The position numbers and the translations under genes were made by a program. A DNA stretch of 64,000 nt from Candidatus Neomicrothrix parvicella RN1. GTDB taxonomy: Bacteria; Actinomycetota; Acidimicrobiia; Acidimicrobiales; VFJN01. The notes under the pieces are model-generated. The model made no database searches, was not told the DNA's origin, and was given only the letters and a program-made list of their open reading frames with translations. Every line of letters begins with the position of its first letter. Position 1 is the stretch's first letter. This document shows, piece after piece, positions 55,798-60,907 of the stretch. The stretch is taken from contig CAMDIH010000003.1 in assembly GCA_945898515.1 (NCBI GenBank), positions 991 through 64,990 on the forward strand, written 5' to 3'.

Positions 55798-56295
55798 GTG
55801 GACAACAAGATCGAAGTCATCATCGAAATACCCCGCGGTAGCCGCAATAAGTACGAGTACGACCACGATCACCACATCATGCGCTTGGACCGTCGGCTCT
55901 TCACGGCCACGGGTTACCCGGCTGATTATGGATTCATCCCCAACACCTTGTCCGAGGACACCGATCCGCTCGACGCCCTCGTACTCCTCGACGACCCCAC
56001 CTTTCCGGGGTGCTGGGTGTCCTCCCGCCCGATCGCTGTGTTCTGGATGACCGATGACGCTGGCCCCGACGCCAAGATCATTTGCGTCCCCGCCGACGAC
56101 CCCCGCTGGGCGCACATCACCGACCTGGACACCCTGCCCGACCATCTGGGGCAGGAGATCAGCCACTTCTTCGAGGTCTACAAGGCGCTCGAGCCCGCTA
56201 AATACTCCACGGTGGAGGGATGGGAAGGGGCGGCGGCAGCCTGGCAGGAGATTCGAGATTGCCAGGAACGCTTCACCCAACAAGCGTTGCCATAG
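55798..56295 (+). CDS. ppa: family I inorganic pyrophosphatase
   Basis: EIPRGSRNKYEYD and YPADYGFIPNTLSEDTDPLDALVL motifs. GTG 55798 (or TTG 55795). The upstream 126 codons of ORF 55420..56295 are antisense to the aminotransferase gene. Confidence 0.9.
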   Translation: MDNKIEVIIEIPRGSRNKYEYDHDHHIMRLDRRLFTATGYPADYGFIPNTLSEDTDPLDALVLLDDPTFPGCWVSSRPIAVFWMTDDAGPDAKIICVPADDPRWAHITDLDTLPDHLGQEISHFFEVYKALEPAKYSTVEGWEGAAAAWQEIRDCQERFTQQALP

Positions 56296-56303
56296 CGGGC
56301 ACC

Positions 56304-57251
56304 TCAGCCCCCTTCGGCGGCGAGGAGGGCCGCACCGATGGCGCCCGCCCGATCCCCTAGTGCGGCGGCCACGATGGGCACCGCCGGTCGTCGGTCACCT
56401 GCCATCACGAGATCCGAGAAGCGCATCTGCACCTCCGGCAGGAGGAGGTCAGCCGCCTCCACCAGACCGCCACCGATCACAATGACAGCGGGATCGAGCA
56501 CATTGACGAGGTTGGCCAAGCCGAGGGCGATCCAGTGCGCCAATTGCCCCACCACCGTCAACGCCTCTGCGTCCCCGGCCCGGGCCGCCGCGGTGACGTG
56601 TTCACCTCGTAGGGCTTCGGGGTCCCCGCCGGCTCGCTCGACGGCTCCATCAAGACGCCCTCCATAGGCTGCGTCACGTCCGAGCCGAGCAAAGCCCGTA
56701 CCCGACGCGAACCGCTCCCAGCAGCCGCGCTTCCCACACGGACACGGAGGGCCGTTGGGGTCCACCACCATGTGCCCGGGCTCGCCGGCGAACCCGTTCG
56801 CCCCGCGCAGAAGCCGTCCGCCGGTGATGATCCCCGCCCCGATCCCCGTGCCGAGTGTCACCACGAGCGCCTCGTCGTACCCGCGGGCGGATCCGGCGGC
56901 CTGCTCGGCCACCGCGTGACAGTTGGCGTCGTTGTCCACCACCGTGAGCCGGCCTGACCGTTGGGTGAGAACCTCGGCGAGGGGTACATCGTGCAAGCGC
57001 CGGAGGTGCGGACCCATCCGCAAGGTGCCCTGACGATCGACCAAACCGGGCACCCCCACCCCAACCCGGGCGGCGGGGGCCGACAAGCCAACCACCAGCG
57101 CTAGGAGGGTATCGACGAGGCCATCGCCACCCTCGGGCGTGGGCACTCGCTGCTCGGCTCGGACCACATCGGGGCAGGACGGGTCAAGAGCCACGCCCAA
57201 CACCTTGGTGCCGCCCACATCAATCCCGATGGTCTCCACGACCAACAGCAT
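56304..57251 (-). CDS. ROK-family glucokinase
   Basis: ATG 57251. GIDVGGTKVLG, the zinc motif CPCGKRGCWE, and the C-terminal IGGG. Confidence 0.88.
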   Translation of the reverse strand: MLLVVETIGIDVGGTKVLGVALDPSCPDVVRAEQRVPTPEGGDGLVDTLLALVVGLSAPAARVGVGVPGLVDRQGTLRMGPHLRRLHDVPLAEVLTQRSGRLTVVDNDANCHAVAEQAAGSARGYDEALVVTLGTGIGAGIITGGRLLRGANGFAGEPGHMVVDPNGPPCPCGKRGCWERFASGTGFARLGRDAAYGGRLDGAVERAGGDPEALRGEHVTAAARAGDAEALTVVGQLAHWIALGLANLVNVLDPAVIVIGGGLVEAADLLLPEVQMRFSDLVMAGDRRPAVPIVAAALGDRAGAIGAALLAAEGG

Positions 57252-57292
57252 GCCCGCCGGGGGCCAGCGGCGAGGCCACCCAACGCCCGGCC

Positions 57293-58408
57293 CTAGTAAC
57301 GCAGCAGTGCCCCGATCCGTCCCAACACGTCGAGATCGGCGTTGCCCACGCAAATCGTCACCGGGACGCTCCGCGTCAGAGCCGCCTCGAGGCAGCCTTC
57401 GACCACATCGTCCACCCGCAGCATCGCCACTCCGTTGGCGGGGTTGGTGGGCCCCACCAACCGGAGGGCGTCGGTGGCGGGACAACGCCATCCCGCTTGG
57501 GCAAAGCCACGTGAAATGAGCAGTCGCTCGACGCGATGTTCATTGAGCGCCTGCAGTGTTGGCCCTAGTCCAGCCACCCCCTTGCCGCCCCCAGCCACCG
57601 CCTGGCGCAGCCGCGCTACTAGGGCCGTCTCCTGTCCTCGCTCCACGCTTAGTTCCACCTCTTCCGCGGCGCGCTGGACGTCGACGGGGGCAGCCCCCAC
57701 ACCCAAGGGGACCCGACCGCAATAACGCTCGCGAAGATACGGGTGCAGATTCTGTACGAGCTCGCTCACGATGGCATCGGGGCCACCGATCACGAGGTGA
57801 TGGAATCCTCGGTCCTGCCAGAGGTCGAACGCGGCCTGCGCGGCGTGACGGAGATGGCGTTGGGCCAACTCCTTGCGGTGCGGTGCAGGGGTATCCCGCT
57901 CGCGCTCCCCCCGAGTGGTGAAACCACGCCGCGGTGCATCCAACCATTCGCAGTGTTCGATCAACTCGCCCATAGCGAAGACGTACAACTGCACGCGCTG
58001 CTTGTCGGCCAAGAGCACCCCGACGGGTTCGTGCTCCTGCAACATCAACTCAAGTTGGCCCACCGCCGGCGCATGGTTGATCACAAGTTGGGATTGCACC
58101 GGCTTTGGTAGTTCGATGACCTTCCACAAGCCACAAGCCGAGCCGGCGAACATCGCCAGCCCACGAGCATGATGTCGGTCGATGCCAGCCCGGACGAACG
58201 CCTCGATCCGGTTGAGGTCTTCGTGCACCGACGGGTACCCGTTGGCCCGTAGTCGAGCGCCCCGGAGCAACCCATCCAACTCGTGCTCAACATCGGAGCG
58301 CCGCAGCAGCCGACGGCCGTCCACGTTGAGGTAACAGGAAGTGACCGGAACGGTGTGTCCCCTGAGCCCAGCTAGTTCCCGAATGGCGGCTTCGGTGATG
58401 ACGACCAC
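57293..58408 (-). CDS. eRF1/Pelota-like protein (bacterial archaeo-eukaryotic release-factor, baeRF-type)
   Basis: 371 aa. N-terminal VTSCYLNVDG, a central host-attachment-like region (HRKELAQRHLRHAAQAAFDL...HHLVIGGP), and a C-terminal eRF1-domain-3-like region (GVAGLGPTLQALNEHRVERLLIS...GRIGALLRY). No GGQ motif. Confidence 0.5.
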   Translation of the reverse strand: MVVITEAAIRELAGLRGHTVPVTSCYLNVDGRRLLRRSDVEHELDGLLRGARLRANGYPSVHEDLNRIEAFVRAGIDRHHARGLAMFAGSACGLWKVIELPKPVQSQLVINHAPAVGQLELMLQEHEPVGVLLADKQRVQLYVFAMGELIEHCEWLDAPRRGFTTRGERERDTPAPHRKELAQRHLRHAAQAAFDLWQDRGFHHLVIGGPDAIVSELVQNLHPYLRERYCGRVPLGVGAAPVDVQRAAEEVELSVERGQETALVARLRQAVAGGGKGVAGLGPTLQALNEHRVERLLISRGFAQAGWRCPATDALRLVGPTNPANGVAMLRVDDVVEGCLEAALTRSVPVTICVGNADLDVLGRIGALLRY

Positions 58409-58631
58409 TGCACCTCCGTGTCAAAAAGGACGCCCTGATCGTAGGTCACCCGGCAGGCCCGTGCGCTGAGCACGGTGCATGACATGCATGGCCGGCGTTT
58501 GGTTCGGGGAGCACGATCGCGAGGGCCCGTGCGGGGGACACGATCACCCGCCTTGGAATCCCGGGGATTGTCGGGCGAGTGCCCTCGGGGGATGGCCGTA
58601 CCCGGCCCCGCAGCGACTGTTGTTTCGACCC

Positions 58632-58778
58632 GCTACCGCCATCGCCACCGGCGACCTCGATTGGTGGGCGTTGTTGGGCGACGGAGCCATCAAATGCTGG
58701 GGCAACAACAGCAACGGGCCGTTGGGGAACGGCACCACCCTCAACTCGACGGTTCCGTTGACGGTGACCGGGTACTGA
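58632..58778 (+). pseudogene. remnant of an RCC1-repeat (beta-propeller) gene
   Basis: The tail of ORF 58479..58778 reads AIATGDLDWWALLGDGAIKCWGNNSNGPLGNGTTLNSTVPLTVTGY, about 1.3 RCC1 repeats. It is followed by a stop and frame-shifted repeat-like sequence. Confidence 0.35.
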
Positions 58779-58888
58779 GTTGCCGGTGGGTTGACGGGCG
58801 GTTGAGTCGCCGGTCGGCGGCCTCGGCACCCGGCGACCAGCAGGAACCGGGCCCCCTGTCGCCCCCGCCATAGACCACCGCGTCGTCA

Positions 58889-59461
58889 CTACCCGGTGGC
58901 GTGCACGATCTTGGCTTGTTCGGCTCCCGCCAGTAGGACCCACTCCAACACGTCGGAAACGTCACTCACGATGATCACCTGCACATCCTCCGCCATGGTC
59001 CTCAACCGATCAAGCACATGGTGGCAGGCCGACCCATCGAGGTCATGGAATACGTCGTCGAGGAGAAGGGGCATCGCACCAGCCAACGAGGCGGCCCGAT
59101 GAGACCCCAGGCGTCTCAGTAGGTGCCACTCGATCTCCTCGGCGACGGTGGTCTCGTCGTCGCGCCTATTCGCCCCCCGGGTTGGCCGAGAGCCGTTGGA
59201 AGGCAGATCGCCCGCGTGCACCACTGGCCGTATCTCGCCCAGTCCCAGATCGATGAGGGCCAGCATCTCCTCCGAGAGGTCGAAGAGCACCCCGTGGGCT
59301 TCGACCAGCCCCGGCCCAACCGGGGCGGCCCCTTGGGCCATGCCCATCAGGGCGGCGACGAGGCGCAGGCGCTGATGCTGATCCATTCCTGCCACCACCG
59401 TGATATTCGGATGGAAGGCCACCTCCAGGCCAGGGGAGATGGTCAGCTTCACCAACCTCAT
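58889..59461 (-). CDS. degenerate ABC/SMC-head-like protein lacking Walker A
   Basis: N-terminus MRLVKLTISPGLEVAFHPNITVVAG, followed by MDQHQR where GxxGxGK(S/T) is expected. Signature-like LGSHR and Walker-B/D-loop-like MPLLLDDVFHDLD. The ATG lies 2 nt after the upstream stop. Confidence 0.55.
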   Translation of the reverse strand: MRLVKLTISPGLEVAFHPNITVVAGMDQHQRLRLVAALMGMAQGAAPVGPGLVEAHGVLFDLSEEMLALIDLGLGEIRPVVHAGDLPSNGSRPTRGANRRDDETTVAEEIEWHLLRRLGSHRAASLAGAMPLLLDDVFHDLDGSACHHVLDRLRTMAEDVQVIIVSDVSDVLEWVLLAGAEQAKIVHATG

Positions 59462-59463
59462 CC

Positions 59464-59736
59464 TTAGGACACCCGAATCCGCTGCACACCTTCGTCGCCG
59501 TCATCCTCGGCACCATCACCGGCCTGGGGGGTTACCGTCGAGCGCAGCCGATCGGCGGCGGCCGTCGCCACGGTGGCCACGGTAGCCACGATGTCCTGCA
59601 CCACCGTGGGGTCATCCAGAAGATCCTCGGCCGCATCCAAGAAAGCGCGCGATGCCTGAATCACCTCACGAGCAGCAGCCTGGAGATGCTCAAGAACCCT
59701 CTGGTCGGCGTTGTTTTGGTACTTAGGAGTGTCCAC
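59464..59736 (-). CDS. small acidic helical protein
   Basis: GTG 59736 with AAGGAG 6 nt upstream (59748-59743), both inside the 3' end of the ArsA-like gene. 90 aa with an Asp/Glu-rich tail. The ORF track lists TTG 59751 as the start. Confidence 0.55.
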   Translation of the reverse strand: MDTPKYQNNADQRVLEHLQAAAREVIQASRAFLDAAEDLLDDPTVVQDIVATVATVATAAADRLRSTVTPQAGDGAEDDGDEGVQRIRVS

Positions 59737-60907
59737 CAACGTCTCCTTCAAAGATCACCTTCAGACGGCCAGCCAACATCTTAGCGTCGAGGACTGCCCG
59801 ATTCCGGAGAGAATCGGGCAGGGTCACCGCCCGCCGGTAGGCCCCCACCTTGAGGAGCAACTCGTCGCCTTTACGGCCCAGCTCCACATCGTCGCGGTCG
59901 GCGAAAGGCAACTCGATCACCAGAGTGGTCCGTCCATTGCGGCGGGTCATCTTGAGCGGCTGTCCCTGGAACAAGATGGCCGCCGCATCGAGGTCGCCAT
60001 ACAGCCGCTGGGCGAACCCCCGGAGCGCGTCGACACCGATGAGTTCCTCCGGGGCGAGTTCCACCTTGAGCACCGGCAAGGGGGCAAACCCCTCCTCGAT
60101 GGTCTTCAGATGTTCGAGGTGAAGTTCCTTCCAGCGATCGAACCACGGATCGCAGACCCCCTCGGGGAGAAGCCGATTGACCACCACAGCATCCACCCGG
60201 TAACCGAACAGCGAGAGGTAGGTATAGGTGCGTCGGGCCTCGGCGATGACCATGCGCTCCGGATTCACGACCAGTCGCACACTGGAGCGGGCCGGGTCCA
60301 TGAGGATCTCTTTTACCCCCTCGAGTCGATCGTAAAAGGCGCTGGTGGCTTCGAACACCCCGTCGCCGGCCACCGGCAGGGACGTGAGACGCTGGAGCAC
60401 CGGCCCCACCACCCGATTCACCCGGCGACCGGCCGGAAAGAGGCGCTCCATGTAGCGGGAGAGGACGTCGGGAAGGGAGAGGAGGCGGATCGTCTCGGCG
60501 GTGGGAGCACAGTCGACCACCACGACATCCCATGCACCGCTGTCGGCATGCACCTTGATGTCGGAGAGCGCAAAGATTTCGTCGAGGCCCGGCACAACCG
60601 ACAGTTCCTCGGCCTCAAGGCCTTCCACACCCGCCCAGGAAAACACTTCTCGCAGGTACTGCTGAATCTCGTGCCAGGACTCCTCCATCCGCTCTTGAGC
60701 ATCGAGTTGCTGGCCCCATAACGATTGACTGATCACCACCGGCAGGGGACCCAAGGGCAGGTCGAAGGCGTCGGCGAGGGAATGAGCCGGATCGGTGGAT
60801 AGCACGAGCGTGCGCAGGCCGACATCGGCACAGGCCAGCGCAGTGGCCGCCGCCGTGGTGGTCTTACCCACACCACCCTTGCCGGTGAACAGCAGGACGC
60901 GAGTCAC
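59723..60907 (-). CDS. ArsA/Get3-family ATPase with a C-terminal HSP20-like domain
   Basis: Deviant Walker A FTGKGGVGKTT, STDPAHSL and DCAPT. The last ~85 aa are beta-rich (TLVIELPFADRDDVELGRKGDELLLKVGAYRRAVTLP), resembling an ArsA_HSP20-type domain. Confidence 0.85.
   Translation of the reverse strand: MTRVLLFTGKGGVGKTTTAAATALACADVGLRTLVLSTDPAHSLADAFDLPLGPLPVVISQSLWGQQLDAQERMEESWHEIQQYLREVFSWAGVEGLEAEELSVVPGLDEIFALSDIKVHADSGAWDVVVVDCAPTAETIRLLSLPDVLSRYMERLFPAGRRVNRVVGPVLQRLTSLPVAGDGVFEATSAFYDRLEGVKEILMDPARSSVRLVVNPERMVIAEARRTYTYLSLFGYRVDAVVVNRLLPEGVCDPWFDRWKELHLEHLKTIEEGFAPLPVLKVELAPEELIGVDALRGFAQRLYGDLDAAAILFQGQPLKMTRRNGRTTLVIELPFADRDDVELGRKGDELLLKVGAYRRAVTLPDSLRNRAVLDAKMLAGRLKVIFEGDVGGHS

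Follow-up and report, generated by a model that had tools for sequence, protein, structure and literature searches.

A probable Balon-type aeRF1-like protein of baeRF family 10, encoded beside a ROK glucokinase in Candidatus Neomicrothrix parvicella

The minus-strand gene at 57293..58408 of the 64,000-nucleotide stretch of DNA analysed here (the window) encodes a 371-aa, Balon-type aeRF1-like protein of the family baeRF_family10, as judged from the open reading frame, Pfam, the PDB, an AF2 model, and Foldseek. We consider it probable that this protein is a ribosome hibernation factor of the Balon type, occupying the A site without recognizing stop codons or hydrolyzing peptidyl-tRNA, because it has an aeRF1 fold, is closest to Msmeg1130, lacks NIKS, GGQ, and a glutamine in the PTC-facing loop, and carries an insertion at the EF-Tu site. 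The first-pass annotation had proposed a factor for ribosome rescue, quality control, or hibernation; our results are consistent with its ribosome-associated reading and narrow it in the direction of hibernation-type, non-catalytic A-site occupancy. As an eRF1 look-alike without catalytic motifs that is closest to Balon, the protein is therefore best regarded as an unannotated new member of a known family.

The coding sequence is a real and strongly conserved gene. It runs from a GTG start codon (58408-58406) to a TAG stop codon (57295-57293), with a Shine-Dalgarno sequence, GGAGG (58413..58417, minus strand), 4 nt 5' of the start. This 5-nt core is embedded in a conserved TGGAGGTG context, which reads CGGAGGTG in the window itself. 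All of the peptides previously quoted from the gene (VTSCYLNVDG, TPAPHRKELAQRHLRHAAQAAF...HHLVIGGPDAIVSEL, GKGVAGLGPTLQALNEHRVERLLIS, and the C-terminal GRIGALLRY) are present in the 371-aa translation. Among 8000 candidates scored, 1826 were homologues of the window protein, and 2328 cluster representatives (50% identity) matched the window family at E<=1e-3. Orthologues in GTDB number ~226. The clade has a mean column identity of 76% in an alignment of 30 sequences. A search of the window with the family HMM for paralogues found the gene at 57293-58408 alone.

The window protein matches Pfam PF18854 (baeRF_family10) with 69.7 bits against a GA threshold of 27.1 (E 4e-19), over aa 114-251 and model positions 1-141 of 143; PF18854 was found in 120 of 120 homologues among the matches listed. 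A resemblance to host-attachment domains had been noted earlier, and a Host_attach match does exist, but at 20.8 bits it lies below the GA threshold of 26.7, and it is baeRF_family10 that is significant. Msmeg1130 falls in the same Pfam family (124.8 bits) and was the top phmmer match in the PDB (E 3.3e-9, residues 16-358). A family profile likewise retrieved Msmeg1130 from the PDB (2e-37), followed by aRF1 (4af1, 9.4e-24), Rv2629 (1.2e-19), and Psychrobacter urativorans Balon (1.8e-9). The length of 371 aa and the full-length similarity in the phmmer and profile matches also agree with the homology criterion of the Balon paper, namely iterative HMMER and a length of at least 300 aa.

The three top NCBIfam matches are all models of ribosome hibernation factors (RHF), and all three score far under their equivalog cut-offs: NF052288 (MSMEG_1130 family RHF) with 55.5 bits against 480, NF052289 (Rv2629 family RHF) with 30.2 against 320, and NF052287 (AOC03_06830 family RHF) with 22.1 against 330. 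The aRF1/eRF1 model TIGR03676 scored 18.9 bits (cut-off 234.7). The scores under all three RHF cut-offs therefore indicate a separate subfamily that currently has no RHF name, and sequence comparison places the window protein in a distinct subfamily of the Acidimicrobiia, which stands out by its fixed chromosomal block, its conserved upstream -10-like element, and its variably retained zinc ribbon. Its homologues are named "baeRF10 domain-containing", "hypothetical", or "eRF1" in the databases.

The AF2 model of the window protein has a pLDDT of 90.7 and a pTM of 0.79. Foldseek returned 48 PDB matches at E<=1e-3, essentially all to Balon, aRF1, eRF1, or Pelota. The top match was Msmeg1130 Balon (8v9l_z, TM 0.76, E 2.9e-25), followed by Rv2629 (TM 0.66), P. 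urativorans Balon (0.64-0.66), aRF1/eRF1 (~0.5), and Pelota (0.3-0.4). The N-terminal, RNase-H-like middle, and Pelota-like C-terminal domains of the aeRF1 superfamily were all recognized in the model, by Foldseek, and in an end-to-end profile alignment to 4af1. Pfam, the profile-to-PDB search, and Foldseek are thus concordant with the three-domain, eRF1/Pelota-like baeRF protein without GGQ described at first pass, and the profile and Foldseek comparison suggested there as a check found the expected eRF1/Pelota-fold similarity.

The N-terminal domain (aa 1-116, 58061..58408, minus strand), delimited from the secondary structure of the model and from alignments, is basic (pI 9.3) and lacks NIKS. 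A motif search found no GGQ, NIKS, NIK, or CxxC anywhere in the 371 aa. In place of the NIKS loop there is a short RANG(H/Y) turn, and in the profile alignment the YxCxxxF decoding motif of aRF1 4af1 aligns to aa 107-115 (QLVINHAPA), with N111-H112-x-P114 at its position. The clade alignment contains an invariant YL(D/N)VDGRR loop (aa 26-33, nt 58310-58333). Relative to aRF1 4af1 there is a 7-residue insertion at this loop, which is a candidate for the HP motif of Balon, a motif that the Balon publications define only in qualitative terms. The supplement of Helena-Bueno et al. (Supplementary Fig. 5 legend) gives three traits of Balon homologues, including the absence of GGQ and an insertion in the C-domain; the N-loop part of the first trait plausibly fits the window protein, in which NIKS is absent. 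A PDB search with a profile of the N-domain only retrieved Msmeg1130 alone and not P. urativorans Balon. Because of the ranking of matches in the Foldseek and profile searches, we infer an N-domain of the aeRF1/Balon type rather than the Sm-like N-domain of Pelota.

The protein could instead be a non-catalytic factor for rescue or quality control, like Pelota/Dom34, that enters the A site of stalled ribosomes and serves subunit dissociation or recycling rather than storage, with EF-Tu or a different translational GTPase as its possible carrier. The superfamily and the three-domain layout are shared with Pelota, a catalytic Gln is absent as in Dom34, and Foldseek matches to Pelota reach E values of 6e-10 to 1e-6. 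Burroughs & Aravind (PMC6514570) suggested such a role for baeRF-1 proteins, a preprint on RTOF (bioRxiv 10.1101/2024.11.25.625233) leaves a rescue role possible for Balon itself, and the constitutive-looking context of the gene suits housekeeping surveillance no less than a role in stress. However, Pelota is neither the top fold match nor the source of the N-domain type: the TM of 0.3-0.4 is far below the 0.64-0.76 of the Balons, and the match of the family profile to Pelota is confined to the M and C domains. Moreover, an ABCE1-like splitting partner is not evident in the conserved neighborhood, and Msmeg1130 and Rv2629, the closest characterized relatives, are translation inhibitors that stay stably bound in the A site. 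We therefore regard a Pelota-type role as unlikely, and hibernation-type A-site occupancy as the better account.

The middle (RNase-H-like, "GGQ") domain spans aa 117-240 (57689..58060, minus strand) according to the Pfam match, the model, and the profile alignment. The absence of GGQ from the middle domain, one of the Balon traits, extends from the window protein to the clade alignment. The earlier observation that GxxQ is also absent here holds: the protein's sole GxxQ, GFAQ at residue 301, belongs to the C-domain. Where eRF1 has its GGQ loop, the model and the clade and aRF1 alignments place a loop of aa 157-177 (DAPRRGFTTRGERERDTPAPH, 57878..57940, minus strand), to which the GGQS of aRF1 aligns in the family profile. 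The loop is Arg-rich, with the clade consensus PRDYDxRGERERGTPxxH and invariant R161, R166, G167, E170, R171, T173, and H177, and it has the lowest pLDDT of the model (52-73). The middle domain of Balon has a lasso loop around A2602 and a bL27 trap; the Arg-rich loop resembles that lasso in position and length and is a candidate for a "lasso-like" loop facing the PTC. A residue-level placement of GGQ on R166-G167-E168 by column counting was not robust and was dropped because the MAFFT and HMM alignments of the loop differ by a few residues. The argument on catalysis rests instead on a fact that is independent of alignment: the motif search found no Gln in loop 157-177 of the window protein.

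That fact weighs heavily on the possibility of an active, specialized class-I release factor with peptidyl-tRNA hydrolase activity. Burroughs & Aravind (PMC6514570) singled out baeRF family 10 as possibly active release factors, because in many members the catalytic loop has retained a conserved Gln. Indeed, distant relatives of the window protein carry DQGGW(S/A)Q, many orthologues with a zinc ribbon have DQG in the loop, and the family profile can be aligned to the whole of aRF1, GGQS included. Against this, the window protein has no GGQ, no NIKS, and no Gln in the loop; the candidate position is Q or R among syntenic orthologues (DQG, ERG, DRG) and is therefore without catalytic constraint; and Msmeg1130, which does have a GQ in its loop, is nevertheless excluded from the catalytic center in cryo-EM structures. 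With the loop Gln absent and its position variable among orthologues, we reject the catalytic reading as exceedingly improbable.

The C-terminal Pelota/eRF1-domain-3-like domain (aa 241-371, 57296..57688, minus strand) ends in GRIGALLRY and aligns end-to-end with Msmeg1130, Rv2629, and aRF1, including the ...G(A/I)LLRY terminus. Within it, the alignments and the model reveal a degenerate zinc ribbon or β-insertion at aa 306-333 (GWRCPATDALRLVGPTNPANGVAMLRV, 57410..57493, minus strand). In the profile alignment, aa ~306-333 coincide with the zinc ribbon of aRF1 and with the insertion of Msmeg1130, and the model has short strands at 306-332, as befits the Balon-type insertion in the EF-Tu-binding C-terminal domain. 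The consensus of a broad alignment at the ribbon is CxxC...CPxC, of which the window protein keeps C309 only, the first of the four ancestral Cys residues. A four-Cys zinc ribbon is found in 40 of 68 syntenic orthologues and is degenerate in the other 28, among them all five representatives of the immediate subclade of the window protein. In the alignments, the ribbon has been lost where Balon and Msmeg1130 carry their EF-Tu-binding insertion.

A ROK-family glucokinase (56304..57251, minus strand; Pfam ROK 3.9e-71) lies 41 nt downstream on the same strand, between the stop at 57293 and its ATG at 57251, exactly as annotated at first pass. Its top NCBIfam match, ROK_glcA_fam, scores 216.6 bits, below the curated cut-off of 260.35. 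In a survey of gene neighborhoods at 80 loci, 66 were testable, and 63 of these have the glucokinase downstream, on the same strand and with a median gap of 43 nt. No terminator-like site was found in the 41-nt gap, and the two genes are probably co-transcribed. The conserved block comprises a glycosyltransferase, an SRPBCC protein, a Get3/ArsA-like ATPase, the ROK glucokinase, a pyrophosphatase, and an aminotransferase, with no stress or ribosome genes among them. It looks like a housekeeping block, unlike the setting of Balon genes, which typically adjoin raiA or stress genes; neither adjacency occurs at the window locus, and this difference counts against the hibernation reading. Balon is also reported, in the paper that described it, to co-occur with RaiA. 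This context suggests a vertically inherited core gene of the Acidimicrobiia rather than a gene of a mobile stress island.

The tight linkage to ROK and the lack of stress or ribosome genes in the block might also be taken to mean that the protein acts mainly off the ribosome, for example as a partner or regulator of the glucokinase or of sugar metabolism, with the eRF1 fold merely retained. Yet all three aeRF1 domains, the basic N-domain, and the Arg-rich loop are kept; the downstream helix HLR and the ...GALLRY terminus are common to ribosome-binding relatives; we found no precedent in the literature on Balon and baeRF proteins; and synteny alone does not imply physical interaction. An off-ribosome role is very improbable, and a hibernation factor remains our preferred reading of the gene.

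The gene was also said to have its own 480-nt upstream region. The spacer (58409-58888) is indeed 480 nt long, but most of it is a lineage-specific insertion of ~400 nt (58480..58885) that is absent from the closest relative, with which only the proximal ~75 nt are shared. Nothing in the 80 loci or in the rest of the window matched the insertion, and comparative alignment places it outside the conserved unit. Descent from a repeat, mobile element, or decayed neighboring gene was considered and set aside for want of matches, the only one being a marginal RCC1-repeat match on the opposite strand. A scan of 56200-59000 gave a sole terminator-like match, inside this insertion and not between genes. 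The window as a whole yielded no Rfam or tRNA matches, and no riboswitch or leader RNA accounts for the spacer.

Comparative alignment identified a promoter-like element, CCTACGATC (58437..58445, minus strand), which is present in 20 of 20 close relatives aligned and occurs once in the window. Its TACGAT fits the TAnnnT form of a -10 element and ends 29 nt before the start codon. The 80 loci contain 47 exact matches, and 45 of these are found 9-98 nt (mostly ~30-40 nt) 5' of an orthologue start, counting matches on the same strand as the orthologue and starts defined by tblastn. A sigma-70 scan of 56200-59000, which uses an E. coli-type model, found no promoters. Conservation points to a spacer of ~40 nt with this -10-like element as the conserved regulatory part.

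Taken together, these features suggest how the protein may work. Transcription would start from the gene's own conserved -10-like element, near window position ~58431, with a leader of ~22 nt, probably together with the ROK glucokinase. The product, a three-domain bacterial descendant of archaeal aRF1, would occupy the 70S ribosome at its A site. By homology, its basic N-domain would sit at the decoding center, with the invariant YLDVDGRR loop and the NHxP segment as possible contacts, and the degenerate zinc-ribbon hairpin would touch domain III of EF-Tu(GDP). Blocking of the A site would hold ribosomes that are idle or paused in an inert, protected state in starvation or stress. Binding to the A site and EF-Tu(GDP) and inhibition of translation are thus predicted from homology to Msmeg1130 and Rv2629.

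Bacterial hibernation factors include Balon-type proteins as a third family, recognized only recently, and to our knowledge only three have been studied so far. The present findings do not overturn the current understanding of these factors. The clade includes thousands of Acidimicrobiia sequences, among them wastewater and soil Microthrixaceae, to which annotation pipelines give no hibernation-factor name, and its recognition extends the Balon-type family to an abundant environmental lineage. Syntenic orthologues with or without the zinc ribbon and the loop Gln are natural variants with which PTC contacts and the binding of EF-Tu can be studied. The invariable proximity to glucokinase is a hint of a metabolic setting outside stress islands. 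As a speculation that we rate as decidedly improbable, the gene could be a core Balon orthologue of the Acidimicrobiia with its own promoter and glucokinase, linking A-site blockade to sugar or energy status, while, inside one syntenic orthologous lineage, the aRF1 ribbon repeatedly decays to the kind of Cys-free hairpin by which Balon holds EF-Tu. If so, the A site would be blocked under sugar or energy control instead of a classical stress regulon, the clade would provide a natural series for testing how bacteria turned an archaeal release factor to hibernation, and the behavior on the ribosome of forms that have both the zinc ribbon and a loop Gln could be compared with that of degenerate forms.

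Among known systems, Pelota/Dom34 shares with the window protein the superfamily and the property of a non-catalytic A-site binder, but has the lowest TM of Balon, aRF1/eRF1, and Pelota. The likeness to aRF1/eRF1 (4af1, 1dt9) covers full-length homology, the same three domains, the domain-3 zinc-ribbon site, and the C-terminal ...LRY, and the CxxC...CxxC of the aRF1 ribbon is still present in orthologues of the window protein; nevertheless, the window protein lacks NIKS, YxCxxxF, GGQ, and the loop Gln, its ribbon is degenerate, and the global TM is only ~0.5. RF1/RF2-type termination in bacteria co-exists with the aeRF1-like protein.

The first-pass premise that bacterial proteins of this kind have essentially no experimental characterization is out of date, since Balon, a baeRF-type protein, was characterized in 2024 by cryo-EM, genetics, and biochemistry (Helena-Bueno et al., Nature 2024, PMC10901736). 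Identity of the window protein to the solved Balons is only 15-22%, which, with the low scores on the RHF models, speaks against the hibernation reading. P. urativorans Balon (AOC03_06830; 8rd8/8rdv/8rdw) and Rv2629 of M. tuberculosis (8v9k) have the same aeRF1-like three-domain fold (Foldseek E 1e-18 to 1e-14), without NIKS and GGQ and with the C-domain insertion, but are only 15-17% identical to it. The nearest counterpart is Msmeg1130 (MSMEG_1130, M. smegmatis; 8v9j/8v9l; NF052288), which binds the A site in cryo-EM structures. It differs in its low identity (~22%), in its loop (FGQAPQERAGQMRE versus RGERERDTP in the window protein), and in being hypoxia-induced, mycobacterial Balon paralogues lying near stress genes, whereas the window gene sits in a fixed housekeeping-type block beside glucokinase. 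Both are Actinomycetota proteins of baeRF_family10 of similar length (371 aa in the window, 375 aa in Msmeg1130) that align end-to-end, lack NIKS and GGQ, and have, where the C-domain zinc ribbon would be, an insertion that is Cys-free or Cys-poor.

The open reading frame at 57293..58408 on the minus strand encodes a 371-aa protein. It begins with GTG, carries the Shine-Dalgarno sequence GGAGG 4 nt 5' of this start and terminates at 57295-57293 (minus strand). The first-pass annotation had placed the ORF exactly, and each peptide it quoted is present in the translation. A full-length motif search detected no GGQ, NIKS or CxxC; decoding and catalytic motifs are missing. The sole GxxQ, GFAQ at residue 301, lies in the C-domain, and the loop at the site of the eRF1 GGQ loop (residues 157-177) is Arg-rich and contains no Gln, confirming that the middle domain lacks GGQ and GxxQ. 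The N-domain is basic, with a computed pI of 9.3.

The window protein matched Pfam baeRF_family10 with 69.7 bits (GA 27.1); the mycobacterial factor Msmeg1130 scored 124.8 bits on the same model. The 'host-attachment' resemblance noted earlier does appear as a Pfam match, but one below threshold, the significant match being baeRF_family10. The top NCBIfam matches were three 'ribosome hibernation factor' equivalogs, all with scores far short of their cut-offs (55.5 versus 480, 30.2 versus 320 and 22.1 versus 330 bits). A phmmer search of the PDB gave one real match, 'Ribosome hibernation factor Balon (MSMEG_1130)', with E 3.3e-9 over residues 16-358. Searched against the PDB, a profile of 89 diverse relatives recovered Msmeg1130 Balon at 2e-37, archaeal aRF1 end-to-end at 9.4e-24, Rv2629 Balon at 1.2e-19 and P. 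urativorans Balon at 1.8e-9, with eukaryotic eRF1s and Pelota also among the matches. An AlphaFold2 model built from the 89-sequence alignment had a pLDDT of 90.7 and a pTM of 0.79 and was soft only at residues ~160-175. In Foldseek the top match was Msmeg1130 Balon in its ribosome-bound form (E 2.9e-25, TM 0.76); next came Rv2629 together with the Balon of P. urativorans (TM 0.64-0.66), ahead of aRF1/eRF1 (TM ~0.5) and Pelota/Dom34 (TM 0.3-0.4). The proposed eRF1/Pelota fold similarity was thus found, with Balon ahead of both. Sequence, family models and structure agree that the protein is of the Balon/baeRF10 type; it is a currently unannotated subfamily member of a kind that is itself already known.

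The fold and general function proposed at first pass stand, but the view of the baeRF families as essentially uncharacterised is outdated, Balon having been identified in P. urativorans and studied by cryo-EM (Helena-Bueno et al., Nature 2024, PMC10901736). Balon lacks both NIKS and GGQ and occupies, with EF-Tu(GDP), the A site in vacant as well as translating ribosomes; the same binding mode is seen for Msmeg1130 and Rv2629, and both inhibit translation (PMC10901736). Balon homologues are distinguished by (i) absence of NIKS together with an extended loop at the decoding centre, on the N-globule's other side (the 'HP motif'), (ii) absence of GGQ and (iii) an insertion within the EF-Tu-binding C-domain (PMC10901736 supplement). 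In the window protein NIKS and GGQ are likewise absent and the C-domain carries the insertion. The extended loop is only plausible: in the profile alignment the family has a 7-residue insertion relative to aRF1 at the invariant YLDVDGRR loop, and a nearly invariant N111-H112-x-P114 aligns where aRF1 has YxCxxxF. The protein is probably a Balon-type, non-catalytic plug of the A site that would reversibly silence and protect ribosomes. A Pelota-like role in rescue or splitting would suit the housekeeping context, and rescue is still a possibility for Balon itself (bioRxiv 10.1101/2024.11.25.625233); the likeness to Pelota is, however, the lowest structurally, and such a role is unlikely.

Proteins of ~371 aa from Acidimicrobiales and Microthrixaceae MAGs form a large clade, which includes the window protein. 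Among 8000 candidates scored, 1826 were homologues, the best 120 of which were 64-99% identical to the window protein; an exhaustive search returned 2328 cluster representatives (50% identity) at E<=1e-3. The homologues listed were labelled 'hypothetical', 'baeRF10 domain-containing' or 'eRF1' at source, and none as a hibernation factor.

A survey of 80 loci from GTDB species representatives, with orthologues 46-87% identical to the window protein, found the neighbourhood conserved. Almost all are labelled Acidimicrobiia or unclassified Actinomycetota, and one Bifidobacterium. The order is glycosyltransferase, SRPBCC, Get3/ArsA-like ATPase, a variable position, baeRF10, ROK (glucokinase-type), pyrophosphatase (opposite strand), aminotransferase and TetR. 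Where enough sequence was available (66 loci), ROK follows baeRF10 on the same strand in 63, with a median gap of 43 nt. In the window the gap is 41 nt, as first annotated (57293 to the ATG at 57251; ROK by Pfam, 3.9e-71), and a terminator scan found no terminator-like site in it. The best NCBIfam match of the ROK protein, ROK_glcA_fam, falls below the curated cut-off (216.6 versus 260.35 bits). Synteny is the one basis for a non-ribosomal, glucokinase-linked role, which we regard as highly improbable. No Rfam family at gathering score, tRNA or tmRNA gene was found in the 64-kb window (1-64000).

Just upstream of the baeRF10 gene, a 190-aa ORF (58889-59461, minus strand) matches residues 1-89 and 780-865 of an SMC-like coiled-coil protein of ~866 aa (BLASTP 9e-22 and 7e-21 against L003 3331-5931, plus strand; SMC_N match faint), which in most Acidimicrobiia relatives is encoded 70-90 nt upstream of baeRF10. 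The window and its closest relative, L001, lack ~690 aa of this coiled coil through deletion; what is left is a 'heads-only' protein with an apparently degenerate Walker-A position (HPNITVVAGMDQ). A conserved 95-aa ORF without family assignment (59464-59751, minus) overlaps by 29 nt the 3' end of the Get3/ArsA-family ATPase gene (59723-60907, minus). The ATPase (ArsA_ATPase 1.4e-87; TIGR00345 262 bits) has a C-terminal HSP20-like domain (ArsA_HSP20 3e-19); its likeness to mycobacterial BagA/BagB is weak, far below cut-off.

The 480-nt spacer reported upstream of baeRF10 exists, but only its proximal ~75 nt are ancestral by comparison with L001, the rest being window-specific. An insertion of ~400 nt (58480-58885), which separates the 190-aa ORF from the conserved spacer, is found in the window only; neither the 80 loci nor the rest of the window holds a matching sequence. 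It contains a plus-strand ORF (58479-58778) with a marginal RCC1-repeat match (22.5 bits, GA 21.7) and the region's only terminator-like hairpin (58724-58712, minus). The ancestral part holds the element CCTA(C/G)(G/C)ATC (58437-58445, minus; L001 5963-5971, L003 5961-5969), present in 20/20 close relatives aligned. It includes the hexamer TACGAT, of the TAnnnT (-10) form, which in the window ends 29 nt before the GTG. Across the 80 loci, 45 of 47 exact occurrences lie 9-98 nt (typically ~30-40) upstream of an orthologue start defined by tblastn, on the same strand, against a chance expectation of about one per 64 kb; these 45 loci reach down to ~49% protein identity. No -35-like conservation was evident. 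The element may serve as a -10 box or as a regulator site, and its fixed position makes it probable that baeRF10 is expressed from a promoter of its own with a ~22-nt leader. Context thus suggests transcription from this -10-like element and co-transcription with glucokinase.

Family 10 was singled out by Burroughs & Aravind for a conserved, possibly catalytic Gln (PMC6514570), and distant relatives have DQGGW(S/A)Q in the loop. The window clade has PRDYDxRGERERGTPxxH, in which Arg, Gly, Glu, Thr and His positions are invariant and no Gln is conserved, and the candidate position in syntenic orthologues is Q or R (DQG, ERG, DRG). The loop alignment is inexact to the residue; the absence of Gln from the window protein is independent of it. 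This absence and the Q/R variation make a hydrolase role very unlikely, and an active release factor, contradicted by the loop, is scarcely credible.

In the broad family consensus, the C-domain bears a CxxC...CPxC ribbon where aRF1 has its own. The four Cys persist in 40 of the 68 orthologues with glucokinase downstream and are lost from the other 28; every member of the window subclade (at least 59% identity) has 0-1 Cys. Several further losses outside this subclade appear independent. Many syntenic orthologues at 46-57% identity keep an intact CxxC...CxxC and loop DQG (e.g. L020, L019, L029 and L021), and at similar identity the cysteines are gone, apparently independently, in L040, L028, L068, L080, L073, L056 and L033. 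The orthologue of L030 (6001-6939, a Microthrixaceae MAG; ROK 203 nt away) seems frameshifted in the C-domain: past GWRAP its translation is out of frame and rich in Arg and Gly. It is possibly a pseudogene or an assembly error.

What makes this subfamily worth noting is its fixed place in the core genome, linked to glucokinase, together with the conservation of the promoter-like element, the intra-lineage passage from ribbon to hairpin and the Q-to-R series. In Balon, the ribbon site of the family is occupied by the EF-Tu-binding hairpin, a two-strand insert earlier suggested to be a degenerate zinc ribbon (PMC6514570); ribbon loss within one orthologous lineage lends direct support to that origin. 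Balon genes are sporadic, often multi-copy and typically neighboured by raiA or stress genes (PMC10901736), whereas the baeRF10 locus sits in a fixed glucokinase-linked block.
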